DNA from: an uncultured bacterium
GTDB lineage: Bacteria; Patescibacteriota; Minisyncoccia; Phycocordibacterales; CAIRYW01
Assembly (NCBI GenBank): GCA_963766885.1
Contig: CAVYBO010000002.1
Span: forward strand, 175,141 to 239,140
DNA: 64,000 nt
Direction: 5' to 3'
Shown: in pieces, positions 44,978 through 61,752 of the stretch
Position numbering within the stretch: position 1 is the first letter of the stretch
Layout of the letters: every line of letters begins with the position of its first letter
Program-made: the position numbers and the translations under genes
The notes under the pieces: model-generated
Database searches by the model: none
The model's input: the letters and a program-made list of their open reading frames with translations, nothing else
What the model was told of the DNA's origin: nothing

Positions 44978-45556
44978 CTAGACTTTGCCTTTTGTGTGAT
45001 GACGGCGAAAAAAATAAAGAAGAATCAGGAGAACGTATCCTGTAAGCGACATCATCGGAATAGTAATGTATCCAAAATTAACAAAAAAAATCTGTGCGCA
45101 TGACGGGCCAACTGCCGCGCAGCCTCCCAAAATATCCGGATTAAACATCTGCCCGTAATAGTTAAATAAAGCAATCGCTCCTCCGATAATGGAAAATATA
45201 AGGCTGTATAGAAAAACAAAATCATCCTGCACTTTATTCACTTTTTCATTATAAAGAGCGACAGCAAACAAAATGGCTTGAGGATACCAAAATATTCTTT
45301 GCCACCAGCAAAGCTCGCACGGCGGAAAACCAATAATGTTTGAATAAATCAAGCTTGATACAACAGAAACAAGACTGATCAAAAATCCGATCCAGAGTGC
45401 GTGATCAGAAGCTTTTCTGGAAAGTTTATGCAGACTTTGATTTGGATGCTCAAGGATTACCGCTGTCAAAATCACTGCACCAATTAAAATAAATATTTGC
45501 AGAACCAGTGTTCCGATAGATAAAAGCTCGCTTAAGTTGGTTGCAAAAGGCGTCAT
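44978..45556 (-). CDS. DsbB/BdbC-like membrane disulfide oxidoreductase
   Basis: 4-TM protein with PPCELCWWQRIFWYP (CxxC at the membrane edge). Start moved to an internal Met. Confidence 0.55.
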   Translation of the reverse strand: MTPFATNLSELLSIGTLVLQIFILIGAVILTAVILEHPNQSLHKLSRKASDHALWIGFLISLVSVVSSLIYSNIIGFPPCELCWWQRIFWYPQAILFAVALYNEKVNKVQDDFVFLYSLIFSIIGGAIALFNYYGQMFNPDILGGCAAVGPSCAQIFFVNFGYITIPMMSLTGYVLLILLYFFRRHHTKGKV

Positions 45557-45596
45557 GAAAATATAATAACATTTTTTAGGACTTGAGCTAGCTGTC

Positions 45597-46715
45597 AATG
45601 GCGGTGTGTCGGAGTTAAGTACCTGTGAGTCCAATCCCTATAAGCATCTTCTGACATCTTTTTGGAAATTAATTTGAAGGATCAGAGTCTACATCAATAT
45701 TTTAAAAATGAGACAAATGAAACATTAATTATCAGTGTGAGAAAAACGCCTCCGTATAAATTTTTTCTTCAGAGATTTTAAAAGATCGCAAATCACGCCA
45801 AATATCTCGAGTAAAAGATATAGAGCCGCAAATCAGAAATTCAGTATCTGAATCAATCGGAATACTTTCAATAATTTTTTGTCCGGTAATTCTACCTTCA
45901 AAAATTTTCTCTGAAACCTTTTCTCTTGTTATAAAATAATTCACCTTAAAATTTTTATACTGATTTTGAAGTTCATCAAAAGTTTTTCTAAAAATTATAT
46001 CCTGAAGCGTTTTGTTGCTATAAAAAAGAGTCATTTTTCTTAATGGGTTATTCAAAAGAGCTGAAATAATCATGCTCCTGAAAGGAGCGATACCAATGCC
46101 GGCAGCAACCATAACCAAATGGCTTTTTTCAGATTCGCTGTAGAAAAATCCATATGGCAAAGAAGCTATGATTCTATCTCCTGTTTTTTTCGCTACAAGA
46201 CTATTTGAAAACTCACCAATAGCTTTGACTGTAATACTAATTAATCTTTCCTTTGGAGAGCTGGATATGCTGTATGCTTTGCCCTCTGGCGTGTTGGTCT
46301 CAGGAAAATAGACAGTTATGAATTGCCCAGGAACATAGTGCGGGCAAACTTTATTCCAATTAATAAGTCTTAACGTGGAAACCCCCTTTGCTTCCATTAT
46401 ATTGCTTTGCACCATGTATGTTTCTTTAATTTCTCTTTTCATCGCTGTTTTCGTAATCTTCAATTGCTTCTCGTAAAGCCTCATGCCCCAAGACCGAGCA
46501 GTGATATTTCCTGTCTGGAAGGCCACCAAGGCGATCAATTATTGATTCCGGGGTCAGCCGCTTTGCCCGATCAACAGTCATGCCACTGTTTTCAGTTGCC
46601 ATAACTGACATCATTGATGTCGAAGCGATTGCTGAGGCACAACCAAATGTTCGCCATTTGCATTCGCTGATTTTTTTTGTTTTCTTATCTACTCTAATCC
46701 AAACAATCATCATGT
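45597..46715. repeat. ~1.1 kb segmental duplication, copy 1 (FNR-like gene plus 3' part of iscU); near-identical to 56293..57418
   Basis: Identical 268-aa ORFs and identical flanking nucleotide sequence; I saw one mismatch (gaaggatcag vs gaagggtcag). Confidence 0.85.
45732..46538 (-). CDS. FNR-like FAD/NAD(P)-binding oxidoreductase (PyrK-like, no Fe-S Cys cluster), copy 1
   Basis: GKAYSISSSP (RxYS-type FAD site) and VMVAAGIGIAPFRSM (GxGxxP NAD site). Confidence 0.6.
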   Translation of the reverse strand: MIALVAFQTGNITARSWGMRLYEKQLKITKTAMKREIKETYMVQSNIMEAKGVSTLRLINWNKVCPHYVPGQFITVYFPETNTPEGKAYSISSSPKERLISITVKAIGEFSNSLVAKKTGDRIIASLPYGFFYSESEKSHLVMVAAGIGIAPFRSMIISALLNNPLRKMTLFYSNKTLQDIIFRKTFDELQNQYKNFKVNYFITREKVSEKIFEGRITGQKIIESIPIDSDTEFLICGSISFTRDIWRDLRSFKISEEKIYTEAFFSH

Positions 46716-46866
46716 CTCCGCAAGCCGGACTACCGACAATACCAACGCCATCTGCTTGATAATCTGCTTCGTTGATTAAAATATTCCGAGGATTGAAAAA
46801 GTGATCCTTGACCACATCGCTATATAGCCAATCTTCCACATCACATGTCAGATTTTTTATTTTCAT
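46426..46866 (-). CDS. iscU: Fe-S cluster assembly scaffold IscU/NifU-like
   Basis: GSPACGDMM, TFGCASAIASTS, KYHCSVL conserved Cys motifs. True start may be an internal Met. Confidence 0.85.
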   Translation of the reverse strand: MKIKNLTCDVEDWLYSDVVKDHFFNPRNILINEADYQADGVGIVGSPACGDMMIVWIRVDKKTKKISECKWRTFGCASAIASTSMMSVMATENSGMTVDRAKRLTPESIIDRLGGLPDRKYHCSVLGHEALREAIEDYENSDEKRN

Positions 46867-48062
46867 ATTTTTACTGTTAATGCTGATAATTTTCTTAATC
46901 TTTTTACAACACCCGTCAAAACATTCATCACCGAATCAATTTCTTCTCGAGTGCTATATTTACCCAATGAAAATCTCAAACTGCCGTGACAGAGATTTGT
47001 ATCTTGGCCTATAGCAAGCAGAACATGCGAAGGCTTGAGATCATAGGTAGAGCAAGCTGAACCGGTCGATGCTTCAATTCCGAATTTATCAAGCATCAGA
47101 AGAATTGACTCGCCTTCAATGTCTGGAATGGAAATATGAACATTATTAGGCAGCCTTATTTGATGATGTCCGTTTAAGCAAGCGCCAGGAATTTCATTTA
47201 GAAGTCTTTCAATAAAATAATCACGGAGGGCTGTAAGCCTCTCTGATTCTTTTTCTCTGGCATTATCAACTTTTTTGAGTGCCTCGCTAAATCCAACGAT
47301 GAGAGGAACACTCTCAGTGCCCGCCCGAAGATGCATTTCTTGTTCGCCTCCCCAAATTATTGGCTCTATTTTCATACTTGTCCTTTTATAAAGAATACCT
47401 ACCGCTTTGGGGCCATATATTTTTGATCCATTAACAGTCATGAGATCAACACCCGAATCTTCCACATCTAAAGAAAGAAACCCTGTCGCTTGGCAAGCAT
47501 CTGTATGAATAAGTGGTAAACCCCCATTTCGCCTTATTTTTCTTATGGCGCCGGATAACTCCTTTATCGGCTGAATAGTGCCAATCTCATTATTGGCATA
47601 CATAACAGAAATAAGAATAGTAGAGTCATCAACAAGCTTTATACATTCTTTAACATCAATTCTGCCGTCTTTTGCTACAGGTAACAGGCTCACTCTAAAT
47701 CCCTCCTTTTCAAGTTCTCTGGCAGGCTCAAGAACCGCCTTATGTTCTATACTCGAAATAATAATGTGATTTCCATAGGCACGATTTGCTCTGGCTACTC
47801 CAAGAATAGCCAGATTATCGGATTCAGTTCCGGAACCCGTAAAAATAATTTCTCCAGGCAAACAATTTAAAATTTTTGCTACCTCAAACCTCGCTTTTCT
47901 TATGGCCTGTCCTGCCAGTCGGCCGCTTCTGTGCATTGAAGACGGGTTTCCATATTTGGAATCAAAATATGGAAGCATTTTTTGTAGAATTTCTGGATCA
48001 GTCGGAGTAGTAGCGGCATAATCCATATATATTCTTTTATCTGATTCCGCAGTATTGTACAT
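46863..48062 (-). CDS. iscS: cysteine desulfurase
   Basis: Class V aminotransferase fold; SIEHKAV PLP-Lys region and SGSACS active-site Cys loop. Confidence 0.9.
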   Translation of the reverse strand: MYNTAESDKRIYMDYAATTPTDPEILQKMLPYFDSKYGNPSSMHRSGRLAGQAIRKARFEVAKILNCLPGEIIFTGSGTESDNLAILGVARANRAYGNHIIISSIEHKAVLEPARELEKEGFRVSLLPVAKDGRIDVKECIKLVDDSTILISVMYANNEIGTIQPIKELSGAIRKIRRNGGLPLIHTDACQATGFLSLDVEDSGVDLMTVNGSKIYGPKAVGILYKRTSMKIEPIIWGGEQEMHLRAGTESVPLIVGFSEALKKVDNAREKESERLTALRDYFIERLLNEIPGACLNGHHQIRLPNNVHISIPDIEGESILLMLDKFGIEASTGSACSTYDLKPSHVLLAIGQDTNLCHGSLRFSLGKYSTREEIDSVMNVLTGVVKRLRKLSALTVKI

Positions 48063-48723
48063 GTTTTTTTAATGAACGCTGAAAAATTTTAAATTCTTCA
48101 TCACTATAAGTTACTTTTCTTCGGAACTGAGGATTGAGAAGTTTTGTTGGGATAAATTTCTGAAGATAGTATTTTTTGGCACCATGAATTTGCCTGCCGA
48201 TTTCTTCTATATCTTTCTCAGAAAGAAGTGATTTAATTACAGTCGTCCTAAACTCATACTCAATTTTTGATGACATCAAAAGGTTGATACTTTTTTGTAT
48301 TGATTCCACATCAACGGGCCGCGCTACAGTTTGGCTGTATTTGGACATTGGCGATTTAATATCCATAGCAACATAATCAACAAGATTTTTATTGATGGCT
48401 TTTTTCAACATTTCAAAATTAGTTCCGTTTGAATCAAGCTTTACTAGAAATCCGAGATCTTTAACTTTTTTCATAAAATCCAAAAGATCATCATGAATAG
48501 TTGGCTCTCCTCCTGTTATTACAATCCCGTCAAGAATCTTTTTTCTTTTTTTGAGAAAATCAATTATTTCCTGTTCGGAAAATCTAATCTCTACTGTTTC
48601 ATCAACAAGCTCCGGATTGTGGCAATAAGGACATCTGAAATTGCAACCGATTGTATAAACCATGCAGGCGATTTTGCCGGGGTAATCAATAAGGGTAAAT
48701 TTTTCAAATCCTCCAAAAACCAT
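48037..48723 (-). CDS. nrdG: anaerobic ribonucleoside-triphosphate reductase activating protein (radical SAM)
   Basis: CNFRCPYCHNPE radical-SAM CxxxCxxC motif; immediately downstream of nrdD. Start set at an internal Met. Confidence 0.75.
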   Translation of the reverse strand: MVFGGFEKFTLIDYPGKIACMVYTIGCNFRCPYCHNPELVDETVEIRFSEQEIIDFLKKRKKILDGIVITGGEPTIHDDLLDFMKKVKDLGFLVKLDSNGTNFEMLKKAINKNLVDYVAMDIKSPMSKYSQTVARPVDVESIQKSINLLMSSKIEYEFRTTVIKSLLSEKDIEEIGRQIHGAKKYYLQKFIPTKLLNPQFRRKVTYSDEEFKIFQRSLKKHVQYCGIR

Positions 48724-48724
48724 T

Positions 48725-50890
48725 CTATGATTTGATGACCTCTTCAGCTTCGACCTTTGAGTTAACTGTGGGAGCATATGTTTTGCGTAGATCATACTCT
48801 GCTTGTTTACCAACATTCCATTGACTGACTGGGCGCAAATAGCCGACAATTCTCGAATAGACTTCGCATTCATTTTGACAGCTTGGGCACAAAAAATGCT
48901 CCCCTGTTATATAGCCGTGGGAACGGCACACACTAAATGTTGGCGTTAGAGTGAAATACGGCAGATGATAATTTTCGCAAATTTTCTTGACAAGTTGAGG
49001 CACCGCTTGAGCATCAGCAATCCTTTCTCCAAGAAACAAATGAATAACTGTTCCTCCTGTATATTTGGTTTGGAGAGGGTCTTGAATATTTAAGGTTTCG
49101 ACTATGTCTTCTGTGTAATGAACTGGAAGATGAGAGGAGTTTGTGTAGAATGGTTCAGCTCCCTTTTTATATTCCTCTTCATTAGCAACGATAATTTCCG
49201 GATATTGTTTTTTATCTTTCAAAGCCAAGCGATAAGCTGTGCCTTCAGCGGGAGTTGCTTCAAGATTGTAAAGATTTCCTGTTTCTTTTTGGTAAGAGAT
49301 TAATCGCTTTCGCATAAAATCAAGGACTTCTTTAGCAAAAGCTTGGCCATTTTCGCTTCCAATATCTTTTCCCAAAAGATTCAAAGCTGCTTCATTCATA
49401 CCAACAAGACCGATAGTTGAAAAGTGATTGTACCAATATTTACCAAATCCGGTTTTGATATTACGTAAATAGAACTTTGTATATGGGTAAAGATTGGCAT
49501 CAGTTAACCGCTCCAAAACTTTTCGCTTAATTTCCAAGCTCTCTTTAGCGATATCCATTTTCAAAGCGAGATTGCTAAAGAATTCTGATTTTCCTTTTTT
49601 CTTGGAAACATAAGCAAGCTTAGGCAGATTTATAGTGACTACTCCAACCGAGCCGGTTAAAGCGTTAGCTCCGAAAAGCCCCCCTCCACGTCGATCAAGC
49701 TCTTCAAGGTCAAGTCTCAGCCGACAACACATCGATCTAGTATCTTCAGGCTTCATATCTGAGTTTATGAAATTACTGAAATATGGCACACCGTACTTGG
49801 CGGTAATCTCCCATAATCCTTTCAGATTTTGGTTACCCCAATCAAAATCTCGAGTAACATTGACTGTTGGAATAGGAAAAGTAAAAACTCTTCCTGCAGC
49901 ATCGCCTTCAGCCATTACTTCAAAGAAAGCTTTATTAAAGAGATCCATTTCGTGCTGAAAGTCTCCATATTTTTCTTCTTTGATTTTTCCTCCTATAACG
50001 ACTCCCTGATTCTTGAAATTCGGCGACGGTGTCAGATCAAGAGTAACGTTTGAAAAAGGGGTCTGAAAGCCTACGCGTGTCGGAACATTCATATTAAAGA
50101 TAAACTCTTGGAGACCCTGTTTAACTTCCTTAAAAGATAATTTATCGAATCGAATAAACGGGGCAAGCAGCGTGTCAAAGTTTGAAAATGCAATAGCGCC
50201 AGCCGCTTCTCCTTGCAAGGTGTACATAAAATTAACGACCTGTCCCAAGGCAGTACGAAAATGCTTCGGTGGAGCAGATTCAATCTTGTCAGGTGTGCCA
50301 CGAAATCCCTCAAGTAAAAGATCCATCAAGTCCCAGCCCACACAATAAATAGAAAGGGTTCCTAAATCGTGAAGATGCAAATCTCCATTTTCGTAAGCAA
50401 CTCTGATTTCCTTTGGATAAATTTTGTTAAGCCAGTAAATTTTGCTCTGTTCTGAAAAAATATAATTATTAAGACCCTGAAGCGAGTAACCCATATTGCT
50501 ATTCTCCTTAACCTGCCAATCAAGCTTGTCTAAATAGCTATCAATCAAATTAAGCGACACAGTTGTGGCAAAAGCCCTCATTTCAGCGTGCTGCCTGCGG
50601 TAAATGATGTATGCCTTGGCGGTTTGTTTAAAGCGCGATTTCAGCAGTACCTTTTCCACCAAATCCTGAACAAATTCAACATTCAAATCTTGTTTTAGAG
50701 GTTTGTTTTTGAGATCAAAAATAATTTTTTTGCCAAGTTCATTGGCCTCTTTTTTACCAAACTCACCAGTGGCAATGGCAGCCTTTTCAATAGCTCTGAT
50801 TATTTTCTTCTTTTTAAAAATTTCTTCCCTGCCGTCGCGCTTTATTATTTTTTTAAGCATAGTTTGAGCGTTGGATTGATAATAATTCAA
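48725..50890 (-). CDS. nrdD: anaerobic ribonucleoside-triphosphate reductase (class III)
   Basis: N-terminal ATP-cone, large class III barrel, C-terminal CPSCQNEC zinc site and glycyl-radical region RIVGY. Confidence 0.9.
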   Translation of the reverse strand: MNYYQSNAQTMLKKIIKRDGREEIFKKKKIIRAIEKAAIATGEFGKKEANELGKKIIFDLKNKPLKQDLNVEFVQDLVEKVLLKSRFKQTAKAYIIYRRQHAEMRAFATTVSLNLIDSYLDKLDWQVKENSNMGYSLQGLNNYIFSEQSKIYWLNKIYPKEIRVAYENGDLHLHDLGTLSIYCVGWDLMDLLLEGFRGTPDKIESAPPKHFRTALGQVVNFMYTLQGEAAGAIAFSNFDTLLAPFIRFDKLSFKEVKQGLQEFIFNMNVPTRVGFQTPFSNVTLDLTPSPNFKNQGVVIGGKIKEEKYGDFQHEMDLFNKAFFEVMAEGDAAGRVFTFPIPTVNVTRDFDWGNQNLKGLWEITAKYGVPYFSNFINSDMKPEDTRSMCCRLRLDLEELDRRGGGLFGANALTGSVGVVTINLPKLAYVSKKKGKSEFFSNLALKMDIAKESLEIKRKVLERLTDANLYPYTKFYLRNIKTGFGKYWYNHFSTIGLVGMNEAALNLLGKDIGSENGQAFAKEVLDFMRKRLISYQKETGNLYNLEATPAEGTAYRLALKDKKQYPEIIVANEEEYKKGAEPFYTNSSHLPVHYTEDIVETLNIQDPLQTKYTGGTVIHLFLGERIADAQAVPQLVKKICENYHLPYFTLTPTFSVCRSHGYITGEHFLCPSCQNECEVYSRIVGYLRPVSQWNVGKQAEYDLRKTYAPTVNSKVEAEEVIKS

Positions 50891-50981
50891 TTATCAATCT
50901 AATTTAATAATTTCGCAATTACTAAACCAGTGGATAACAGAGTTCAACACGCAAATCGTAAGATTGCAAATTCAATCTCCC

Positions 50982-51007
50982 AAATTACCAGTATTTACAG
51001 GTAATTT
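50982..51007. promoter_or_regulatory. palindromic operator candidate AAATTACC-N10-GGTAATTT between the ArsR-like regulator and nrdD
   Basis: Perfect 8-bp inverted arms about 92 bp upstream of the nrdD start and 12 bp after the arsR-like stop. Confidence 0.4.
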
Positions 51008-51018
51008 CTAGACAATCT

Positions 51019-51387
51019 TTAGACCACCATTCTACGGTGTCTTAGGTTGTGCAATATCTTACAAGGCTCAACGATCCTAGGATCAACGATTTTATAGAAA
51101 ATATTTAGCCCGTGTCGGCGAGTTTTTACCAGTCCGTTGTGTCGAAGAAGTGCCAAGTGTTGGGAAAGATTAGCTTTTGATATTTTGGTGATTTTCAGAA
51201 GCTCATCAACACCCACTTCCCTTTTCTTCAAAATATTAAGCACCTCAAGGCGTTTTGGGTTGGCCAATATCTTGTAGATATCTGCATTTTTATTATAAGC
51301 TTCTTGCGGTAGTGGTGATTTCATAATTGCGATACTTAGTAATTTAAGTATATCAGTCTCAAGATATAATTCAAATCGTGTCTTCAA
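51019..51387 (-). CDS. ArsR/SmtB-family winged-helix transcriptional regulator
   Basis: ILANPKRLEVLNILKK…ISKANLSQHLALLRHNGLV HTH signature. Confidence 0.7.
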   Translation of the reverse strand: MKTRFELYLETDILKLLSIAIMKSPLPQEAYNKNADIYKILANPKRLEVLNILKKREVGVDELLKITKISKANLSQHLALLRHNGLVKTRRHGLNIFYKIVDPRIVEPCKILHNLRHRRMVV

Positions 51388-52615
51388 TTTCCATCAATCT
51401 GTTGTATTTAGAGACCCTTTCTCCCCTTACCAATGACCCTGATTTTATATAATCACACGATAGCCCGACGGCAAGATCTGCAATAAATGTGTCCGTTGTC
51501 TCACCCGAACGATGCGAGACAAAAGGTGTCCAACCTTGTTTTTTTGTCATTTCAACCGCTCTTATTGTTTCAGTGAGCGTTCCTATTTGGTTGAGTTTGA
51601 TAAGAACAGAATTAATAGCTTCCTTTTCAGTTGCTTTTTGAATTCTCTTTATGTTTGTGACGGTCAAATCATCCCCTACTATTTTTATTTTATCTCCAAG
51701 AGTTCTATTCATTTCTGAAAAACCCTCCCAATCATCTTCAGCCAGCCCATCTTCAATTGAGATAATCGGATAAGTGTTAACCATCTTTTCATACCAATCA
51801 ATTAAGCCAGAAGTATTTATACTTCTCTTATGCCCATCAATTCTGAGCCAATACGCGTCGTCATTATAAAAAGTTGAGGCCGCCGCATCTATTCCTATTT
51901 TTATTTTTTCAGTTGAATATCCAGAATCTTTAATCGCCCGAACTATAAGTTCTAGAGCTTCTTCATTTGAAGAAAGTTTAGGAGCGAATCCCCCCTCGTC
52001 TCCAACACTTACAGCATATCCTTTTGACATCAAAATTTTTCTTAGTGCTGAAATTACTTCTGAGGCTGCACGTACTTTCTCCTTAAAAGAATCGAAATTA
52101 ATTGGACCAATCATAAATTCTTGAATATCAAGCCCACTGTCGGAATGTTTGCCGCCGTTTATAATATTAAACATCGGCTGAGGAAGTTTAAAAGTTTTAT
52201 TTTCTGCCAAATTACCAATGTATTCGTATAGTTCAATCTTTTCTTCTCTGGCTTTAGCCCGAGCAAACGAGAGCGACACAGAAAGAATAGTGTTGGCACC
52301 AAGTCTTGATTTATTTTCTGTTCCATCGAGATCAATTAACGCTTTATCCAGTGTATTCTGATTAAACTCATTATTTTGAATACATAAGTTTATTTCATCA
52401 TTAACATTTTTTACTGCTATAAGTACACCAAACCCGTTGTATCGCTTTTTGTCGCCGTCTCTTAGTTCTAGAGCCTCGTGAATACCCGTGCTTGCTCCTG
52501 ACGGCACTGATGCAACTTCTGTAATTCCACTTGAGAGTTCACACATAGTTTCTATCGTCGGATTGCCTCTTGAATCAATAATTTCTCTTGCTTTAACTGA
52601 TTTTATTTTTGTCAT
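51371..52615 (-). CDS. eno: enolase
   Basis: Full-length enolase signatures (SRGNPTIE…, IKLNQIGTLTET, SHRSGETED-like). Confidence 0.95.
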   Translation of the reverse strand: MTKIKSVKAREIIDSRGNPTIETMCELSSGITEVASVPSGASTGIHEALELRDGDKKRYNGFGVLIAVKNVNDEINLCIQNNEFNQNTLDKALIDLDGTENKSRLGANTILSVSLSFARAKAREEKIELYEYIGNLAENKTFKLPQPMFNIINGGKHSDSGLDIQEFMIGPINFDSFKEKVRAASEVISALRKILMSKGYAVSVGDEGGFAPKLSSNEEALELIVRAIKDSGYSTEKIKIGIDAAASTFYNDDAYWLRIDGHKRSINTSGLIDWYEKMVNTYPIISIEDGLAEDDWEGFSEMNRTLGDKIKIVGDDLTVTNIKRIQKATEKEAINSVLIKLNQIGTLTETIRAVEMTKKQGWTPFVSHRSGETTDTFIADLAVGLSCDYIKSGSLVRGERVSKYNRLMEIEDTI

Positions 52616-53424
52616 TATAAAAGATGAAAGTTATCAATTATGTGTTTTTCGGCTTCAACCAATATTTTTTCCATCATCTTCACTGCTTCAACAGGATATT
52701 TACCTTTTGTTGTTTCTTCTGAGAGCATTACAGCATCAGAACCTTGAATAATAGCGTTAGCCACATCAGTAACCTCCGCCCTAGTTGGGGTGGGATTTTC
52801 TACCATCGACAAAAGCATTTGTGTGGCAGTAATGACCGGTTTTCCAGCTTCTTTACACTTCTTAATTATATCCGCTTGCACAAAAGGTATTTGCTCAAGA
52901 GGTACTTCGTTTCCCAGATCGCCACGAGCTACCATAACAGCGTCTGTCACTTCAATAATCTGGTTAATTTTTTCAACACCAACGGCACGTTCTATTTTTG
53001 CAACTATTTTTTGGGTACCAGAACATTCTTTTATTATTTTTCTACAAAGATTTATGTCTTCTGGACCGCCAACAAATGAAACCGCTATATAATCAACATT
53101 TTGCTCAGCTGCGAATTTTATAAATTCTTTGTCATTGTCAGTAATTGCAGAAACTGCGCTGTGATTATATGTATGCTCCGCACTTTCCTGAATTCTTGGC
53201 CCAGGTAGATCAATTAAGATAAGAATCTTTCGTCCGCATTCTTTTTCAAGCTCTCGGATAAGTTTAATTTGACGCACCCTTTCATCAAGATGACTCCAGG
53301 AAAAGTTAAACCTGACCACATCAAGCTCGTGTTCGATCATCGCCTTAAGAGTTTCCCTATTATCAGATGCCGGGCCTATAGTCGCTACTATTTGTGCTTT
53401 TGAATTTGTTTGAAAATTTGTCAT
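52615..53424 (-). CDS. truncated pyruvate kinase: A-domain barrel only, lacking B (lid) and C-terminal domains
   Basis: [69 protein letters not shown] are all PK-specific. Only 269 aa, and the K+/substrate loop jumps directly to the second barrel half. Confidence 0.55.
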
Positions 53425-54065
53425 GCGTTTACTTTGGATTCCACTTTTTTAATCTGCTTTTTAATCATTTTTCCTTGACTATCAACATCATATATTAAAA
53501 CGGCACCGAAAAGCATCTCAACATTCTTTATTTTCTCATCAGATATATTTTCAATGTATTTCATCAAGGCTCTGATCGCATTGCCATGAGAGACAATCAA
53601 AACATTTTTATCGTTATTAAGTAGCGGGACAATATGCTCTTGGTAATACGGCACGGCTCTTTCATACACCATTTTCAGAGTCTCCCCGTTCGGTACCGGG
53701 CAATCCCAGTCTCTTCTTATGCAATCAAATTTCTCTTCACCGAACAGCTTTTCCATTTCCCATTTATTTTTTCCCGTGTAATCTCCGTAATCTCTTTCAT
53801 TCAAAGCGGCAGAAAATTCCACAGGCACATCAAGGTCTTTGGCTTTTTCCTCCATTCCAAGAAGTGTTTCGTACGAGCGAATTTGAGCCGAAGCAAAAGC
53901 TTGATCAATGTGAATTACCTCGATCAACTCTCCCATTTCTTCAGATTTTCTGAATCCATATTCGGTCAAATGCACATCTCGGCTTCCAGTCCATTTTCCA
54001 AGTTTGTTCCATTCCGATTCATGATGTCTTGCGATTATAAGCTTCCCTGTTTTTTTAAATTGCAT
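53421..54065 (-). CDS. gpmA: 2,3-bisphosphoglycerate-dependent phosphoglycerate mutase
   Basis: RHHESEWN (RHGxxxWN) catalytic motif. Confidence 0.8.
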
Positions 54066-54066
54066 T

Positions 54067-55041
54067 TTATTTGTTTATAATATTTTTCGGCATCTTTCCG
54101 TCAAAAAAATCAATAATGTTTTGAGCGGCAAGCTCTGCCATCTGATTGCGCGTTTCGATGCTTGCAGATGCGATATGAGGAGTTAGAATCACATTCTGAA
54201 GTTTGATCAGACCTTTGGAAATATTTGGCTCAAATTCAAAAACATCCAAAGCCGCTCCGGCAATAATTTCTTCTCTTAGACATTTTTCCAAGGCAACTTC
54301 ATCAATAACAGGACCGCGGGAAGTGTTGATTAGAAAGCTGGTTGGCTTCATCATTTTTAATCTGGCTTCATTGATAAGATGCTTCGTTGAATCCATAAGA
54401 GGAACATGAAGTGAAATTACATCAGCTCTTTGCAAAACTTCTTCTGGTGAAACGCAATACGTTGCTCCGCAATTTTCTTCAATTCTGCTATTTCTAACAA
54501 CATCTGTATAAATAATCCTCATACCCAGTCCTTGGGCGTAATGTGCAACCCTTTCTCCGATTCTACCAGCACCGATGAGACCCAGTGTTTTGCCAATAAT
54601 ATCTGTACCTATAAAATTCATCGGCGCCCAGCCTTTGTACTTTCCATCCCGAACAAATTGGTCTGCCTCAACGATTCGCCCTGCAAGAGCAAGCATTAAA
54701 GCAATGGCGTGCTCTGCAACAGATTCGGAAGTTTGCTCTGCCGGAGCGTTTGTTATTACAATTCCTCTTTTTTTGGCTTCTACGAGATCAATATTGTCAA
54801 AACCAGTTGCGTAGTTAGCATATATTTTTACACTAGGTGCCACATCAAAAACAGAAGCATCAATTTTGTCAGTCAACAAAGAAAGCACTCCGTCATAGTT
54901 TCCGTTTTTTAAATTCTTGATCAGATCTCTTTGGCTCAAGATTTCATCTTTTGGATATATTTCCAACTGATATCCCTTATCAGCAAGCATCTTGATTCCA
55001 ATGTCTGGAATCTTTCTTGTTACAAAAATTTTTTTGGTCAT
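54067..55041 (-). CDS. D-isomer-specific 2-hydroxyacid dehydrogenase (glycerate/hydroxypyruvate reductase-like)
   Basis: GLIGAGRIGERVA NAD site and catalytic His region (PHIASAS). Confidence 0.8.
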   Translation of the reverse strand: MTKKIFVTRKIPDIGIKMLADKGYQLEIYPKDEILSQRDLIKNLKNGNYDGVLSLLTDKIDASVFDVAPSVKIYANYATGFDNIDLVEAKKRGIVITNAPAEQTSESVAEHAIALMLALAGRIVEADQFVRDGKYKGWAPMNFIGTDIIGKTLGLIGAGRIGERVAHYAQGLGMRIIYTDVVRNSRIEENCGATYCVSPEEVLQRADVISLHVPLMDSTKHLINEARLKMMKPTSFLINTSRGPVIDEVALEKCLREEIIAGAALDVFEFEPNISKGLIKLQNVILTPHIASASIETRNQMAELAAQNIIDFFDGKMPKNIINK

Positions 55042-55051
55042 TTATTATATA

Positions 55052-56185
55052 TTAACAATTATCAGCTCCAATTGCTTGGCTTATGTTAGTAAATCCATCT
55101 CTTTTGAGAAGTTTAGCCAAACCCTGGTTTATCTCACTTATAACCTGCGGGCCTTCAAATATCATTCCTGTAATCATCTGGATAAGCGTCGCACCGAGGC
55201 GGATTTTTTTATATGCATCTTCAGCAGTAAATACTCCACCGCATCCTACAAGCACAAACCTTTTCCCTTCTCTCTTATAAATATATGCAAGCATATTATC
55301 AGCAAGATCCTGAACGACTTTCCCGCTCATTCCACCCACATCAGGAATTGAACTGTCTTTGATTTTCGGGTTGTCCTTTTTCTTAGTGAGATTGGCGCAA
55401 ATAATTCCTTGGATACGATGGTTTCGCGCAACATCAAGAATAGCGTCAAGCTGTGAATGATTGAGGTCCGGAGACATTTTTATAAAAACAGGTTTTTTGG
55501 TTGGAATCTCATCCAGAATATCAAAAAGGTAATCTAGTTTATGCGGCGCAACAAAAGACTGCCCACCTATAGCATTTGGACAGCTAATATTTACCGTAAT
55601 GTAGTTGGCTACAGGTTCCATGATTCTGAAAGCTTTTGCAAAATCTTTGATACCATCTTTAAGCACAAGATTCTCTTTGCAATTAGTCATAGCTATTGAG
55701 ATACCTATTGGGATATTGAATTTTTTATCTTTAAGCTTTTGCAATATTGCTTCGCAGCCATCATTTTTAAGACCGTAATAAACTACAAGGCTTTTTGATT
55801 TTGGTAGACGCCAAAGCCGAGGTTTTGGATTGCCCTCATATTTTTCTCCCGTGATTGATCCAACTTCAGAGAAACCAAAGCCAACATCAGCAATAATGTC
55901 AGTAAGTTCTGCATTTTTGTCAAAACCGGCGGAAAGCCCTATTGGATTTTTAAAATTTATACCGAGGACTTCTTGTTCCAATACAGGATTGTTATAACCA
56001 AATAATCCTCGCGTTAATTTCTGGCAAAAAGAATATTTACCCATCCGCGCACCAAGTTTTGTCATTCTGTCGTGTATTGTTTCCGGATCATTCAGGAAAA
56101 AAACAGGTTTGAGGATACCAGAATATAATACATGATTTATCTTGTTTCTATAGTATGTGGCTTTTTCATTCATATATAGTTTCAA
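55052..56185 (-). CDS. pyrD: dihydroorotate dehydrogenase with class-2-like N-terminal extension but Cys catalytic base (NISCPN)
   Basis: GLSAGFDKNAE, GFGFSEVGSIT, PRLWRL, NISCPN, GCGGV motifs; N-terminal ~40-aa helical extension. Confidence 0.75.
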   Translation of the reverse strand: MKLYMNEKATYYRNKINHVLYSGILKPVFFLNDPETIHDRMTKLGARMGKYSFCQKLTRGLFGYNNPVLEQEVLGINFKNPIGLSAGFDKNAELTDIIADVGFGFSEVGSITGEKYEGNPKPRLWRLPKSKSLVVYYGLKNDGCEAILQKLKDKKFNIPIGISIAMTNCKENLVLKDGIKDFAKAFRIMEPVANYITVNISCPNAIGGQSFVAPHKLDYLFDILDEIPTKKPVFIKMSPDLNHSQLDAILDVARNHRIQGIICANLTKKKDNPKIKDSSIPDVGGMSGKVVQDLADNMLAYIYKREGKRFVLVGCGGVFTAEDAYKKIRLGATLIQMITGMIFEGPQVISEINQGLAKLLKRDGFTNISQAIGADNC

Positions 56186-56434
56186 AGTTAATTGATTACT
56201 TGATTATAATATAACACAAATAAAAATGAAAACCATATTCCGAACATGAAATCTAAGGTCTTGCTTATCGGGCATCAGGGTCTTCCGATACTAAATACTC
56301 TTGGCGGTGTGTCGGAGTTAAGTACCTGTGAGTCCAATCCCTATAAGCATCTTCTGACATCTTTTTGGAAATTAATTTGAAGGGTCAGAGTCTACATCAA
56401 TATTTTAAAAATGAGACAAATGAAACATTAATTA

Positions 56435-57241
56435 TCAGTGTGAGAAAAACGCCTCCGTATAAATTTTTTCTTCAGAGATTTTAAAAGATCGCAAATCACG
56501 CCAAATATCTCGAGTAAAAGATATAGAGCCGCAAATCAGAAATTCAGTATCTGAATCAATCGGAATACTTTCAATAATTTTTTGTCCGGTAATTCTACCT
56601 TCAAAAATTTTCTCTGAAACCTTTTCTCTTGTTATAAAATAATTCACCTTAAAATTTTTATACTGATTTTGAAGTTCATCAAAAGTTTTTCTAAAAATTA
56701 TATCCTGAAGCGTTTTGTTGCTATAAAAAAGAGTCATTTTTCTTAATGGGTTATTCAAAAGAGCTGAAATAATCATGCTCCTGAAAGGAGCGATACCAAT
56801 GCCGGCAGCAACCATAACCAAATGGCTTTTTTCAGATTCGCTGTAGAAAAATCCATATGGCAAAGAAGCTATGATTCTATCTCCTGTTTTTTTCGCTACA
56901 AGACTATTTGAAAACTCACCAATAGCTTTGACTGTAATACTAATTAATCTTTCCTTTGGAGAGCTGGATATGCTGTATGCTTTGCCCTCTGGCGTGTTGG
57001 TCTCAGGAAAATAGACAGTTATGAATTGCCCAGGAACATAGTGCGGGCAAACTTTATTCCAATTAATAAGTCTTAACGTGGAAACCCCCTTTGCTTCCAT
57101 TATATTGCTTTGCACCATGTATGTTTCTTTAATTTCTCTTTTCATCGCTGTTTTCGTAATCTTCAATTGCTTCTCGTAAAGCCTCATGCCCCAAGACCGA
57201 GCAGTGATATTTCCTGTCTGGAAGGCCACCAAGGCGATCAA
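56435..57241 (-). CDS. FNR-like FAD/NAD(P)-binding oxidoreductase, copy 2 (identical protein), directly upstream of pyrD
   Basis: Identical 268-aa translation to 45732..46538. Confidence 0.6.
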   Translation of the reverse strand: MIALVAFQTGNITARSWGMRLYEKQLKITKTAMKREIKETYMVQSNIMEAKGVSTLRLINWNKVCPHYVPGQFITVYFPETNTPEGKAYSISSSPKERLISITVKAIGEFSNSLVAKKTGDRIIASLPYGFFYSESEKSHLVMVAAGIGIAPFRSMIISALLNNPLRKMTLFYSNKTLQDIIFRKTFDELQNQYKNFKVNYFITREKVSEKIFEGRITGQKIIESIPIDSDTEFLICGSISFTRDIWRDLRSFKISEEKIYTEAFFSH

Positions 57242-57417
57242 TTATTGATTCCGGGGTCAGCCGCTTTGCCCGATCAACAGTCATGCCACTGTTTTCAGTT
57301 GCCATAACTGACATCATTGATGTCGAAGCGATTGCTGAGGCACAACCAAATGTTCGCCATTTGCATTCGCTGATTTTTTTTGTTTTCTTATCTACTCTAA
57401 TCCAAACAATCATCATG
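57129..57417 (-). pseudogene. 5'-truncated iscU copy (C-terminal ~96 codons) abutting the IS3 element
   Basis: Identical to the 3' part of iscU at 46426..46866; the reading frame upstream is replaced by IS sequence. Confidence 0.7.
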
Positions 57418-57478
57418 TGGCCCTCCCCCCAAATTTCATACACCAACCTTGTATAATTAGAAGCTAATATACAAGCAT

Positions 57479-57733
57479 ATGAAAAGACAAAAAATAGCCC
57501 CTGAAATAAAGGAGCAGATTATTAACAGAATCAAGAATGATGGTATCAGTGTAGTCCAAGCAGCCAAAGAGCATGGCATCAGCGATGTCACCATATATGG
57601 GTGGATAGCCAAGAAAACCAAAGGTCAGCCAACTCTTTCAGAGGTAATTAAACTCAAGCGAGAAAATGCTCAACTGCTTCAGTTAGTTGGAGAAATTACT
57701 CTAAAGCTCTCAGAAACCCAAAAAAAGAATTGA
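57479..57733 (+). CDS. IS3-family transposase OrfA (HTH)
   Basis: HTH plus leucine-zipper-like C-terminus; ends at the AAAAAAG frameshift motif (about 57717..57724). Confidence 0.8.
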   Translation: MKRQKIAPEIKEQIINRIKNDGISVVQAAKEHGISDVTIYGWIAKKTKGQPTLSEVIKLKRENAQLLQLVGEITLKLSETQKKN

Positions 57734-58551
57734 AAGAAAATAGTGAGACTCCCAAAACTCTTCGGGCCAGAGAGCTTGGGATCTCCCGCAGCACTCTCTA
57801 CTACAAACCAAAGAAACCTGACAAAGATTGGGAACTAAAATGTCAGATTGAAGAAGTTCTCAGAGAGCATCCTTCATATGGTTCTCCACGCATCGCCCTT
57901 GCCCTCAAAAGAAACCACAAACCGATTGAACGAGTGATGAAACTTTTCGGTATCAAGGCATATCGCAGACGTGGTAGAAGATGGAAAAAATCGAAGAATA
58001 TCAAAGTTATTTACCCAAATCTTCTTTTGACTAATTATCCCCAATATGAAAATCATATCTGGGTGACAGACTTCACCCGCATACCCTTTGAAAACAAAAC
58101 CATCTATGTGGCTACAGTCGAAGATTTGTTCACCAGAAAAATTGTTGGGTTGTCAGTATACACCACCCATGCTGTTCAATTGGTTTTAGCATCATTCATG
58201 TCGGCTCTTCAAAATAATCCCAGACCAAAAATTTTCCACTCTGACAACGGCAGTGAATACAACTCGGAGGTGTTCATTCAGGCGCTGCAGACCGTCGGGG
58301 TATTGATTTCTCGTTCTGCTCCAGGTTGTCCGTGGGAGAATGGGTACCAGGAATCTTTCTACGACAAATTCAAAATTGATCTTGGGGATTCTTCCCGATT
58401 CAAAACATTGGGAGAGCTGGTGTTCGCTATTTACCAAACAATTTACATTTACAACAACACCAGGATTCATACCGCCCTCAAAATGTCACCCGTGCAATTT
58501 GCACTTTCGTCGGCTCGAGAATACAATTCAGCTAACAAGGTTAGTGTCTGA
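57730..58551 (+). CDS. IS3-family transposase OrfB (rve integrase core, DDE)
   Basis: HIWVTDFT (D), HSDNGSEY (D), PWENGYQESF (E) integrase-core motifs. Confidence 0.85.
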   Translation: MKENSETPKTLRARELGISRSTLYYKPKKPDKDWELKCQIEEVLREHPSYGSPRIALALKRNHKPIERVMKLFGIKAYRRRGRRWKKSKNIKVIYPNLLLTNYPQYENHIWVTDFTRIPFENKTIYVATVEDLFTRKIVGLSVYTTHAVQLVLASFMSALQNNPRPKIFHSDNGSEYNSEVFIQALQTVGVLISRSAPGCPWENGYQESFYDKFKIDLGDSSRFKTLGELVFAIYQTIYIYNNTRIHTALKMSPVQFALSSAREYNSANKVSV

Positions 58552-58616
58552 TGAAATGGGGGAAGTACAGTGAATCAAAGGAATCCTTCCAGAGATGTCT
58601 AAAGCGTGAGTGAGTT

Positions 58617-59690
58617 ATGAATGCAAATCCGCAGCTTGCTGTATCAGTACAGACAGGTCTGGTCCGCTGGTTTGACCGCCGCCTCGATAAGAGGTTCGGC
58701 TTCATTACCTTGGACTGGAAAAACCCAAAGGAGGAAGACATTTTCTTCCACCTCAACGACAACGCCATCGTCTACGGAGACGCTGGTCAACCATACTTCC
58801 GGACTGACCCGGCGAACAAACCGGCTAGGCTCCCTGAAGAGGGTGACCTGGTGGTGTTTGAAACTCAGCATCCTCCACGTGGTCCGAAGGCCAAGCCTTG
58901 GGCTTACCTTCATGACTACGAGGCGATCGTGCGCGGTATTTCTCCGCAGCCGCTGTACCGACTGGTCGGGCACTACCATATTTCAGACGGCGGCAAGGAG
59001 AAAAAAGGTCCTCGGATTATCTTCTGGGGCGGCCTGTCTCTCGACTCGCTGTATCTCCGGTATCCGGACTGTCGAGCGGATCTCGCAGCCATCAAGTGGT
59101 GCTTCCGGTTGCCCTGCTCGAAAGTCGAAGGTATCCATCTGGAAGTTCTGCCCGCGGAAGCGGACAAGTACGACGACTCGGCGTGGATGCCTTACGAAAT
59201 TCCGGAAGATGCGGACGACGATGTCGTTCTCATTACAGAACCGAAGCTCAAGATCACCGCTGAGTACGGCCACGGTGGTCACGAAACCGAGTACGTCATC
59301 CGACTCTGGGAGGAAGAACCGGGACACCCCGGCCATTACCTCAAGTGTCTCGACTTCCCGAAGGAGTTTTCCGACGAGTTCGAGATCGTGGCCAGAGCCG
59401 AGCCGAAGCGGTGGGCAGTATATCCCCGCGGTGTTCGGATCGAGGTGTACTTCACGGATCAGCTCCGGACCGAAGAGCCGGTTCCCTACGGGACACCGGG
59501 TTTCGTTAGCTTCTCTTCCAATCATTTCGAATGCAAGCGTCTCATTGAGACGACTCTGCAGCGGCTGAAAACGAAGCTCGCCAAGCTTCGCAAGGAGAAG
59601 ATCCTGGACATCTGGGCCGACGATTTAACTTCGCCCCTCATCAAGGAGCGCAAGCTTACGTTCCATGTGAACGAGGTCGTCGTGGAGTAA
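58617..59690 (+). CDS. cold-shock-domain (CSD) N-terminal fusion protein with a ~280-aa C-terminal domain of unknown function; G+C-rich foreign gene
   Basis: N-terminus GLVRWFDRRLDKRFGFITLDW…DIFFHLND matches the CSD RNP1/RNP2-like pattern. The rest is unrecognised. Abrupt rise in G+C and GC3 relative to the host. Confidence 0.45.
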   Translation: MNANPQLAVSVQTGLVRWFDRRLDKRFGFITLDWKNPKEEDIFFHLNDNAIVYGDAGQPYFRTDPANKPARLPEEGDLVVFETQHPPRGPKAKPWAYLHDYEAIVRGISPQPLYRLVGHYHISDGGKEKKGPRIIFWGGLSLDSLYLRYPDCRADLAAIKWCFRLPCSKVEGIHLEVLPAEADKYDDSAWMPYEIPEDADDDVVLITEPKLKITAEYGHGGHETEYVIRLWEEEPGHPGHYLKCLDFPKEFSDEFEIVARAEPKRWAVYPRGVRIEVYFTDQLRTEEPVPYGTPGFVSFSSNHFECKRLIETTLQRLKTKLAKLRKEKILDIWADDLTSPLIKERKLTFHVNEVVVE

Positions 59691-59766
59691 CAGGTTCACA
59701 CAATATATTAAAGGTTTGTCCCCGCCCTGAAATTCGGAGAGCCTAGAGGAAGCAGAGCCTCAAAAC

Positions 59767-59802
59767 AAAGCCGTCGCCCACAAGCGCGGCTTTTGTCTTT
59801 TT
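59767..59802 (+). terminator. rho-independent terminator after the CSD-fusion gene
   Basis: aaagccgtcgcccacaagcgcggcttt hairpin followed by TTTTGTCTTTTT. Confidence 0.6.
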
Positions 59803-59838
59803 ATATTTTATTGTAATGTCTTACCATCTGTACTTTAT

Positions 59839-60300
59839 ATGATCCAAAACAGATTACGCATCCTGTGTCTATACAACGACCAGGAACCAAGCTATCTGGA
59901 AGCGGATCCAGAATTCGAACTTCGAGATCACGAAGTAACAATCTTCGAAACGTATGTGGAAGCGAAGACAGCAATTCAGGATAGCACAAGAGGAATACCT
60001 CCTTTCGATGTTGTCCTTGCAGATGTGTCAGTGCCTGGAGGAAAATTCGAAGACGGTTTTGACGACTTCCCTTTCTCTCCAGTATTGCTTCAACCCTATC
60101 TGAGCCAAGTACTTGTGCGAGGTTTAGGCGTCTTTGCTCCGGAAGATTTCGAAACAACCTTTGAGTCCTCAGATGGATTTGCTGTGCTAGTTGCTTCGAA
60201 AGAATGTCGAACACCATTCGGCACTCGAGACTGGAGGAAACTTTTGGAACTTGTTCTCAAGGCTTCGGATGAAGCTGACCAATTCAGAGTCCGTGACTAA
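59839..60300 (+). CDS. stand-alone receiver (REC)-like domain protein with atypical acidic pocket (NDQE in place of DD); G+C-rich
   Basis: RILCLYNDQE…YVEAKTAI…FDVVLADVSVPGG…FAVLVASKE follows the CheY-like beta-alpha layout with a conserved phospho-acceptor-position Asp. Confidence 0.35.
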   Translation: MIQNRLRILCLYNDQEPSYLEADPEFELRDHEVTIFETYVEAKTAIQDSTRGIPPFDVVLADVSVPGGKFEDGFDDFPFSPVLLQPYLSQVLVRGLGVFAPEDFETTFESSDGFAVLVASKECRTPFGTRDWRKLLELVLKASDEADQFRVRD

Positions 60301-60322
60301 CCCGCTATGCGGGTATTTTTTA
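60301..60322 (+). terminator. terminator after the REC-like gene
   Basis: cccgc-tat-gcggg followed by TATTTTTTA. Confidence 0.55.
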
Positions 60323-60343
60323 TAGAAAATATTTTTTAATTTA

Positions 60344-60376
60344 AATAAAAAAATCGAGCCGCATTTCTGCAAGCTC
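60344..60376 (-). terminator. terminator of the convergent minus-strand gene 60378..61262
   Basis: cgagc-N13-gctcg hairpin followed by an A-run on + (a T-run on the minus strand). Confidence 0.55.
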
Positions 60377-60377
60377 G

Positions 60378-61262
60378 TTACTTTCGATTCATGAACATCG
60401 ATGCCGCTGCGGCCAGACCACAGAGAAGGATGAGTTCTTGATACCAGCCGTCCACATTGTGACAAGTGAACTCAACACCATATCCTCGACGAATGTCGTG
60501 AACATGCGGAGACGGATGAATTCCACAAGCATCACCTGGACAGTCGATGATCAGGTTGCCACCTGTAACCCAGGAATGGAAGGAATGTTGATGGAAGTCT
60601 TCCACCTCTCCGAACATTTGCCTGTAGGCAGATTTCTCTGCCTCAACCACTATGGGAAGCTCAACATCACTGCCGCGAGATACGGAACGCAGTAGGTCAA
60701 CGAAATCCGGACTCATCTGTCCTCCAAGGAAGTGGCGACCAGCCTGTCCCCCAAGAAGCAGAGTAAACCACTGCTTTTCCTCCGATTGGATATCCACTTC
60801 AGGTGAGAACTCGATGGCAGAAAAGAGAACCGAGAGCGAGATGCAGAGCAACCGCGCTTTGTCCCAATCACGAACCCTCTGCCATCCTGTGCCACGACAG
60901 TCCATGCAATCTCCCATGATTTCTCCGCAGCTAATTCGGTTGCGAGTTCCCTGACATTCCGGACAGACCATGCCGGTTTGGTGAATCACATGAGGAATCC
61001 TGATCCGATAGGTTATCCAGTCAGCATCAGTTTCTTCTCTGACGATAACCTCGTCAAAGCCGAAGGTGTCCTGACCAAGTCTCGTTTCGCAACGAAGGAA
61101 AAGGTCACGTTCAACACCAAAAAGCTTGAAGTGTTTGGCAGTTTCTCTGTATGGAGCTGTTTCGATGAACTTTCGATGAATCTTCAGAAACAGAGACTCT
61201 TCGTCCCTGTCCCACCACAAACCATACCACTTGGGTATGTCTTCAAAGGCGAGTACTTTCAT
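60378..61262 (-). CDS. Cys-rich zinc-ribbon (CxxCxGxG DnaJ-type repeat) protein of unknown function with C-terminal hydrophobic tail; G+C-rich
   Basis: CPECQGTRNRISCGEIMGDCMDCRGTG; C-terminal LILLCGLAAAASMF. Confidence 0.4.
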   Translation of the reverse strand: MKVLAFEDIPKWYGLWWDRDEESLFLKIHRKFIETAPYRETAKHFKLFGVERDLFLRCETRLGQDTFGFDEVIVREETDADWITYRIRIPHVIHQTGMVCPECQGTRNRISCGEIMGDCMDCRGTGWQRVRDWDKARLLCISLSVLFSAIEFSPEVDIQSEEKQWFTLLLGGQAGRHFLGGQMSPDFVDLLRSVSRGSDVELPIVVEAEKSAYRQMFGEVEDFHQHSFHSWVTGGNLIIDCPGDACGIHPSPHVHDIRRGYGVEFTCHNVDGWYQELILLCGLAAAASMFMNRK

Positions 61263-61301
61263 ATCTGACTGGATATTACTACAACGCGTTTACTGTGCAA
61301 G

Positions 61302-61751
61302 TTATAGAGTGTCCAAAGCTTTTACAGCAAAGAATTTAATATCTTCTCTCAAATCCATATTTTGCAATTCTTCTTTGTTAAGCCACTTCCACTCATCTTC
61401 TGGTTTTTCTGGGATAACTTTGTCTGTATTTGAACTGGCAAAATAGACATTAACCACATGTTCATGAGTATTTGTTATATTGTGTCTGCCTAAAGAAATC
61501 GGAGGAATTAATTGCTTGTTTTCTTTGTCTTCATGATGAAATACTTGGTTACCGTTCCATAATTTCACATCCAACCCAACTTCTTCTTTCACTTCTCTTA
61601 AAGCTGCTTGATTTGGATCTTCATCAAGTTCAATATGTCCACCAACACTTAACCAGATTTTGTATTTATCGTGCAGTCTAAGCAGAACTTTGTTTTTATG
61701 AACAACAAAGACCTCAACAACAAAATCAATTTTTTCGTGGATGTGGGGCAT
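61302..61751 (-). CDS. NUDIX hydrolase
   Basis: Nudix box GGHIELDEDPNQAALREVKEEVGL. Confidence 0.7.
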   Translation of the reverse strand: MPHIHEKIDFVVEVFVVHKNKVLLRLHDKYKIWLSVGGHIELDEDPNQAALREVKEEVGLDVKLWNGNQVFHHEDKENKQLIPPISLGRHNITNTHEHVVNVYFASSNTDKVIPEKPEDEWKWLNKEELQNMDLREDIKFFAVKALDTL

Positions 61752-61752
61752 A

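Follow-up and report, generated by a model that had tools for sequence, protein, structure and literature searches.

A 1.1-kb direct repeat abutting an IS3-family element in a Patescibacteria genome, read as the remnant of a tandem duplication

In the genome of an uncultured member of the Patescibacteria, a 1.1-kb segment carrying the gene for an FNR-like flavoprotein (fnr) and the end of the scaffold gene iscU is present in two copies, the second of which runs directly into an insertion sequence (IS) of the IS3 family, raising the question of how the duplicate arose and what part the IS played. The locus lies in a stretch of 64,000 nucleotides, referred to here as the window (assembly GCA_963766885.1, contig CAVYBO010000002.1, positions 175,141 to 239,140 of the forward strand), and an original prediction made from the sequence alone had read the whole arrangement as a likely IS-mediated rearrangement. 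That reading holds for the truncation of the second copy, at which the IS lacks a target-site duplication and lies between unrelated flanks, and fails for the duplication, the far junction of which (56301/56302) contains no IS. Thus the IS accounts for the truncation, not for the duplication, and the second copy together with the IS is best explained, with a probability of roughly 55%, as the remnant of a 10.7-kb tandem duplication later cut back by the IS3-family element in three steps.

Self-BLAST of the window, as proposed in the original prediction, recovered the repeat as a single long match pairing 45599-46715 (R) with 56302-57418 (R'), in direct orientation over 1117 bp at 99.91% identity with one mismatch and no gaps. 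The repeat had earlier been placed at 45597..46715 and 56293..57418 with about one mismatch, of which the mismatch count stands while the two starts were off by 2 and 9 bases; the unequal lengths of 1119 and 1126 that these positions imply are at odds with an alignment that holds no indel. The sole mismatch (A at 45681, G at 56384) falls within the non-coding tail after fnr. Between the copies lies a unique interval of 9586 bp, S (46716..56301), delimited from its open reading frames (ORFs), Pfam matches and a contig of an independent assembly, and read like R and R' on the minus strand. The offset between the copies is 10,703 bp, the length of R plus S, such that R' begins exactly where S ends. 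The fnr-side ends of R and R' fall on the identical base, while at the other end the last shared base (T, 57418) doubles as the first base of the IS, in line with the predicted stop of homology at the first nucleotide of the element; the breakpoint is therefore ambiguous by one base and R' proper runs from 56302 to 57417. No further self-similarity, such as the rest of a second [R-S] unit, was detected in the window beyond R and R'. A 34-nt repeat at 45262 and 56093 is read in different frames in the DsbB and PyrD genes and was taken as chance.

The repeat was predicted to hold an FNR-like gene and the last ~290 bp of iscU, and its content bears this out, R being made up of a 133 bp spacer after fnr, the fnr gene and the final 290 bp of iscU. 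The first fnr copy (45732..46442, minus strand) encodes a protein that matches Pfam NAD_binding_1 (E 2e-17) and NCBIfam FNR-type reductase models spanning residues 4-226; its start was set at Met33 of a longer ORF by homology to a relative (L004) with which the N-termini align, an alternative start being at 46415. The only intact iscU/nifU-type gene of the window (46426..46866, minus strand, 146 aa) matches NifU_N (Pfam, E 3e-37), TIGR03419 and TIGR01999 and has the full NifU_N domain with three conserved Cys ligands. In R', the second fnr copy (fnr', 56435-57145, minus strand) is intact, while iscU' (57129-57417, minus strand) is broken within codon 51, which specifies Asp in the ACGD motif. 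Having lost codons 1-50, iscU' lacks the first conserved Cys, that of the ACGD motif, and with it the complete NifU_N domain with three Cys ligands; without this first cluster ligand it cannot work as a scaffold and would be a pseudogene, a dead fragment, as the original prediction had it. The same prediction placed a second flavoprotein gene upstream of pyrD, and fnr' is indeed found upstream of pyrD (55052-56173) with both genes on the minus strand. Judged from its position, fnr' would be cut off from the operon promoter, and no promoter-like site was found upstream of fnr' on its own strand.

Comparison with related genomes, also called for in the original prediction, identified which copy is the older. 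Searches of genome and metagenome collections with the FNR-like protein returned relatives at 51-59% identity, and the gene order nrdD-nrdG-nifS-iscU-fnr was found in L004, L005/L019, L010, L011 and L013 and partly in L012, that is in every case with enough flanking sequence. R carries this conserved arrangement, which marks its iscU side as ancestral and makes R' the derived one of the two. The nrdD-nrdG-nifS-iscU-fnr cluster (window 45732-50890) is conserved across distant Patescibacteria, and, at a guess based solely on linkage of the genes, the FNR-like protein may be the reductase that supplies the activase NrdG or Fe-S assembly. Besides the iscU 5' end, S contains nifS, nrdG, nrdD, an HTH_5 regulator gene, enolase, a PK-like gene, a His_Phos_1 gene, a 2-hydroxyacid dehydrogenase gene, pyrD and a 128 bp spacer upstream of pyrD.

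This spacer (56174..56301, minus strand) leads to the far junction of R'. Its pyrD-proximal part, ~46 bp long, is conserved in the spacer between DsbB and pyrD of a relative (L009) and includes a promoter-like motif on the minus strand (putative, 56232->56203), while the distal ~80 bp show no conservation to L009. No IS end or IS-like sequence was found in 56174-56301, the alignment score against the IS being 15 with a shuffle mean of 14.1, and no IS remnants were found at the S/R' junction, upstream of DsbB (45557-45598), in the right flank of the IS or in the gap between the GC-rich island described below and the NUDIX gene. Beyond R lie a promoter-like sequence starting TTGACA and then the DsbB gene (44978..45556, minus strand, Pfam DsbB), directly downstream of R; beyond R' lies the pyrD spacer. 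A DsbB remnant was sought in the 128-bp spacer and rejected, the pyrD-proximal ~46 bp being its only part conserved with L009. The position 56301/56302 is a novel join made without a mobile element, which is what a tandem duplication calls for. This single S/R' join would define the common fnr-side end of R and R', with the continuity of R and DsbB then being ancestral, and the direct, contiguous order R-S-R' would be what remains of a head-to-tail [R-S] duplication after loss of most of the second unit.

An independent view of these junctions came from the Logan short-read assembly of run ERR11630394, of which only unitig boundaries could be used. The contig L006 (9646 bp) spans window 46686-56331, being made up of S with exactly 30 nt (k-1) of the repeat on either side, and differs from the window at 2 positions. 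Since 30 nt of R are carried at both ends, the R/S and S/R' junctions are present in the reads; the pyrD spacer is truly joined to the start of R, and a second sequence truly enters R at the iscU breakpoint. Branch points in the graph of this run coincide exactly with the two ends of R and the two ends of the IS. On the right side, L003 matches window 58543-61975 at 100% identity, its first 27 nt lying within the IS and the rest crossing the island to end in the NUDIX gene, and the independent assembly contained no contig across R'/IS or DsbB/R. An artefact of assembly, in which one R existed and the second came from mis-joining or from mixing of strains, would be in keeping with the metagenomic origin of the genome and with the 2 differences in L006, which indicate more than one strain or data set; it is scarcely credible given that the independent contig of S ends 30 nt inside R on both sides, that another sequence leads into R at the iscU breakpoint and that R and R' differ by a single-nucleotide change.

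The element itself (57418..58569, plus strand) is 1152 bp long with 41.7% GC and belongs to the IS3 family, in agreement with the earlier assignment. OrfB (57730-58551, plus strand), read in the -1 frame relative to orfA (57479-57733, plus strand, Pfam HTH_Tnp_1), carries an rve domain (Pfam, E 1.6e-18) and scored 207 bits against NCBIfam NF033516 'IS3 family transposase' (curated cutoff 160) over profile positions 102-368. A candidate -1 frameshift heptamer, A-AAA-AAG, is seen at 57721-57727 in the orfA frame, and the termini are imperfect inverted repeats of ~38 bp with TG...CA ends. Elements of this family are about 1.15-1.75 kb long and are expected to generate a target-site duplication of 3-5 bp on insertion. 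The ends were set independently by a 99%-identical IS copy with different flanks on an unrelated Joint Genome Institute (JGI) contig (L001, JGI 3300045621, 1-1303). The copy on L001 likewise has no target-site duplication (CCT / CGA), with a left flank encoding an XRE-like HTH start and a GC-rich right flank, and this 1.3-kb metagenome contig may be chimeric or hold another rearranged IS copy. Thousands of OrfB relatives at 75-83% identity were recovered, mostly on metagenome contigs of 1.1-1.5 kb, one of them named Candidatus Paceibacterota; contigs this short usually mean that a multi-copy repeat has been collapsed. OrfB is only ~35% identical to IS3 transposases carried by plasmids of cultured bacteria, and the IS is an undescribed IS3-family element from a Patescibacteria lineage.

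No target-site duplication of 3-5 bp was found round the IS under any reasonable placement of its ends, the flanks reading ...CATG / GTGA..., and the direct repeats of 3-4 bp named in the original prediction as the sign that would speak for a simple insertion were not seen. A target-site duplication is a property of the insertion event and not of the element, and its absence would be the basis for a later rearrangement having taken place. Nor do the flanks belong together. To the right of the IS lies a GC-rich island of 2.7 kb (58570..61270, right edge approximate), delimited by its composition (50.5% GC compared with 36-38% in the flanks) and by L003, and self-BLAST found the island similar neither to iscU nor to any other part of the window, in accordance with the earlier statement that no iscU 5' half continues past the right end of the IS. 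The two flanks, a truncated iscU on the left and a foreign GC-rich island on the right, are not original neighbours. With mismatched flanks and no target-site duplication, the IS shows the textbook pattern of an IS-associated deletion or of recombination between two IS copies, not that of simple insertion.

Adjacent deletion and IS-IS recombination are both well established for IS3-family elements. Among 68 events of IS150, an IS3-family element, in the E. coli long-term evolution experiment, 14 were accompanied by deletions ranging from 14 bp to 48.9 kb, and all 14 lacked a target-site duplication and were resolved as an insertion followed by an adjacent deletion (PMC11708052). Recombination between IS copies is made feasible by L002, an IS-only contig of ERR11630394 which begins with the first base of the IS, extends 3 nt beyond the right terminus and lacks 26 bp of the window copy, a deletion that disrupts orfB; with its exact bounds and its difference from the window copy, it places the IS in more than one context in the sample. 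L002 ends with GTG past the IS, so that at least two right-hand contexts in the sample share GTG after the element.

The favoured history would run as follows. In an ancestor with the plus-strand order pep-DsbB-[R-S]-right flank, the 10,703-bp unit [R-S] would have been duplicated head to tail, making the sole truly new DNA join, S/R' at 56301/56302, with no IS involved. An IS3-family element would then have inserted into the second iscU, where insertion would be tolerated as this copy was redundant, or would already have been sitting further to the right. Finally, an adjacent deletion from the IS end, or recombination between two directly oriented IS copies, would have removed the second S and whatever lay beyond it, leaving one IS without a target-site duplication, with iscU codon 51 on its left and the GC-rich island on its right. 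A single mismatch over 1117 bp speaks for a young event; the original prediction had likewise called it recent on the strength of near-identity, and while the near-identity stands, recency is not thereby proven as gene conversion would also keep the copies alike.

Several points weigh against this history. The second copy of S left no trace and the tandem stage is deduced from geometry alone, while the 64-kb window holds one IS copy (no other IS ends with <=3 mismatches were found in it) and neither a partner IS nor a reciprocal half-site. Three steps are needed, with a single-step IS-associated event as a rival, and short reads would look alike for R-S-R', for a chromosome accompanied by a 10.7-kb circle and for a higher-order array. 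Lastly, DsbB follows R and pyrD follows R' in the window, yet DsbB lies directly upstream of pyrD in L007 (8925-11122), L008 and L009 (2512-4260). The same three relatives share the longest synteny with S, running from pyrD through 2-hydroxyacid dehydrogenase, His_Phos_1, PK-like and enolase genes as far as HTH_5. For DsbB and pyrD to stand split across the ends of the repeated unit, either an older cyclic rearrangement of the block would have been needed or the split is a coincidence. The window DsbB is 66-67% identical to the DsbB beside pyrD in relatives, similar to the identity of neighbouring orthologues, and the gene upstream of pyrD varies, being DsbB in L007-L009, NusA in L021 and S20 in L022; at 26-34% protein divergence the history is not recoverable at nucleotide level. 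A larger tandem unit, [DsbB-pyrD...fnr], was considered and rejected as it would need two independent events sharing one breakpoint at the end of R.

If the single-step rival were correct, the IS would have entered a DNA break while a duplication or deletion was being resolved, joining iscU codon 51 to the island, and without staggered cuts made by a transposase there would be no target-site duplication. The one IS copy in the window, its unrelated flanks and the missing target-site duplication all fit, and there is precedent in the de novo moves of IS5 and IS481 with large deletion and duplication described by Ngan et al., which had neither a target-site duplication nor a partner IS (PMC11708052). 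In those events the IS lies between the duplicated copies, whereas here it bounds the short copy on its outer side and the join is free of IS; moreover every IS150 case in the same study was a stepwise insertion plus adjacent deletion (PMC11708052). The sequence has nothing that separates one step from several, and a single step was rated an improbable route.

Could R' and the IS have travelled together? A move of both as a 2.27-kb unit, from an IS-disrupted iscU at the R locus to the site upstream of pyrD, using a surrogate left end 1117 bp away, would be in keeping with a composite that starts TG and ends CA and with the start of R, TGGC, which resembles the TGGCCC of the left inverted repeat. 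The resemblance is weak, however, with the start of R matching the inverted repeats at 12/30 positions, a value reached by 9.5% of window 30-mers and by 22% of those starting with TG, and no target-site duplication surrounds the composite (TCT vs GTG). Copy-out-paste-in transposition keeps the donor IS at its original site, and yet iscU at the R locus is intact and free of scars. Such a transfer was judged very unlikely, and the tandem duplication followed by IS-associated deletion was retained.

The pairing of R and R' chosen by the assembly is itself one of several, the others being a chromosome in which the island and IS lead through a single R to DsbB (G-IS-R-DsbB) with an excised 10.7-kb circle of S plus R, a tandem array (R-S)n with n>1, or a population in which these forms are mixed. 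At 1117 bp R exceeds the short-read length, its four flanks (the IS, the iscU 5' end, the pyrD spacer and DsbB) allow two pairings, and the contigs L006 and L002 prove only that the branch points exist, with the single difference between R and R' lying 82 nt from one end and being unable to phase the far end. The deposited contig of 596,164 bp runs continuously through the region, however, and a 10.7-kb circle with enolase, nifS, nrdD and pyrD has no replication gene, while a chromosome without S would lose essential genes, so that a circle could occur only as a minor by-product. Another topology was accordingly regarded as quite unlikely.

Set beside known systems, the feature is a new instance of well-known, ordinary rearrangement processes. 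With the adjacent deletions and IS-IS recombination of IS150, IS3 and IS911 it shares orfA/orfB, the A6G frameshift site, a DDE rve transposase and TG...CA ends, and like the deletion events of IS150 it has no target-site duplication and an IS between segments that were not originally neighbours (PMC11708052). It departs from the IS3 and IS150 cases in that OrfB is ~35% identical to plasmid IS3 transposases and its lineage is found mainly in Patescibacteria metagenomes, and from the IS150 cases in that the deletion was deduced and not observed, with no partner IS or earlier state at hand. The tandem duplication-deletion cycle of Salmonella and E. coli offers the same direct repeats, a second copy that abuts S and a join without a mobile element; here, in contrast to the remnants in those species, only 10% of the second unit survives, and the remnant would be unable to collapse by homologous recombination without losing the only S. 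Translocatable units of IS26/IS6 and one-ended mobilisation by ISEcp1 also place an IS with adjoining host DNA at a second locus, but they belong to other IS families, and in the window the composite is not bounded by a target-site duplication, its would-be surrogate end is no better than chance and the R locus has no donor IS; both were rejected as the mechanism.

Recombination between R and R' would delete S and with it the only enolase, nifS, nrdD/nrdG and pyrD genes and the 5' part of the only intact iscU. Collapse by recombination would therefore be lethal, and R' would be trapped until it decays. The repeats could, on the other hand, support amplification of S. It is conceivable, although very doubtful, that the remnant is something other than neutral debris, with R-S-R' kept as an amplifiable unit or with the intact fnr' retained to serve the 'quinone-dependent' dihydroorotate dehydrogenase (DHODH) encoded by pyrD. 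Were the former true, unequal exchange would raise the dosage of lower glycolysis, class III ribonucleotide reductase, Fe-S assembly and pyrD; were the latter, an FNR-like flavoprotein gene directly upstream of pyrD would provide for PyrD. DsbB and PyrD, whose genes are neighbours in relatives, are each now directly preceded by an fnr copy. The FNR-like protein was also considered as a PyrK and rejected, as it has no C-terminal Fe-S domain and pyrD is class 2.

The usual description of very small Patescibacteria genomes is that they are streamlined and contain few repeats. In one such genome (596-kb contig), the locus is a clean and datable case of plasticity, and it indicates that an IS3 lineage frequent in metagenomes of Paceibacterota is, or was until recently, sufficiently active to remodel the region of a core operon. 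In practical terms, a 1.1-kb repeat plus an IS are likely points of assembly breaks or mis-joins in this lineage, and for annotation the truncated iscU should be entered as a pseudogene and the second fnr as a duplicate. The locus opens no new biological question.

The remaining observations concern neighbouring genes. The pyrD product (373 aa, Pfam DHO_dh) is a class 2 'quinone-dependent' DHODH that scored 339 bits against NF003652 (cutoff 267), and the same 373-aa gene call was obtained in L006; its homologues place the organism in the Patescibacteria (Paceibacterota and Taylorbacteria names), the nearest being 74% identical. DsbB and PyrD both come from quinone-dependent enzyme families. 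To our knowledge, the host lineage is generally thought to lack quinone synthesis. The PK-like gene of S (52615-53424) encodes only 269 aa, with 267 aa in L007, L009 and L022, and the truncated protein appears to be conserved in this lineage. Exact-protein look-ups for iscU, the S53-like peptidase and DsbB gave no matches.

The GC-rich island holds three ORFan genes, at 58617-59690 (plus strand, 357 aa), 59839-60300 (plus strand) and 60378-61262 (minus strand). The first shares its strand with the transposase gene and begins 47 bp past the IS end, and apart from a weak cold-shock-domain (CSD) match at its N-terminus no family was found for the island genes in Pfam, PADLOC or PHROGS, and no viral relatives were found. 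The 357-aa protein has a single homologue, at 44% identity, among 5.8 billion proteins, and the gene for this homologue adjoins a Y1 (IS200/IS605-type) transposase gene on L023. The island is probably a recent horizontal acquisition. Round the IS and island, a search for att-like direct repeats gave short chance matches only, and Rfam and tRNA scans returned nothing near R, R' or the IS. Further along, two NUDIX ORFs (61302-61949 and 61753-62190) overlap by ~200 nt as listed, with L003 ending inside the overlap at 61975, which may come from a misassigned start or from a branch or repeat at this place. Elsewhere in the window, an imperfect palindrome of 51 bp (34104-34154), 90% self-complementary and situated at the 5' end of the ORF 33488-34159, could be an operator or a hairpin.

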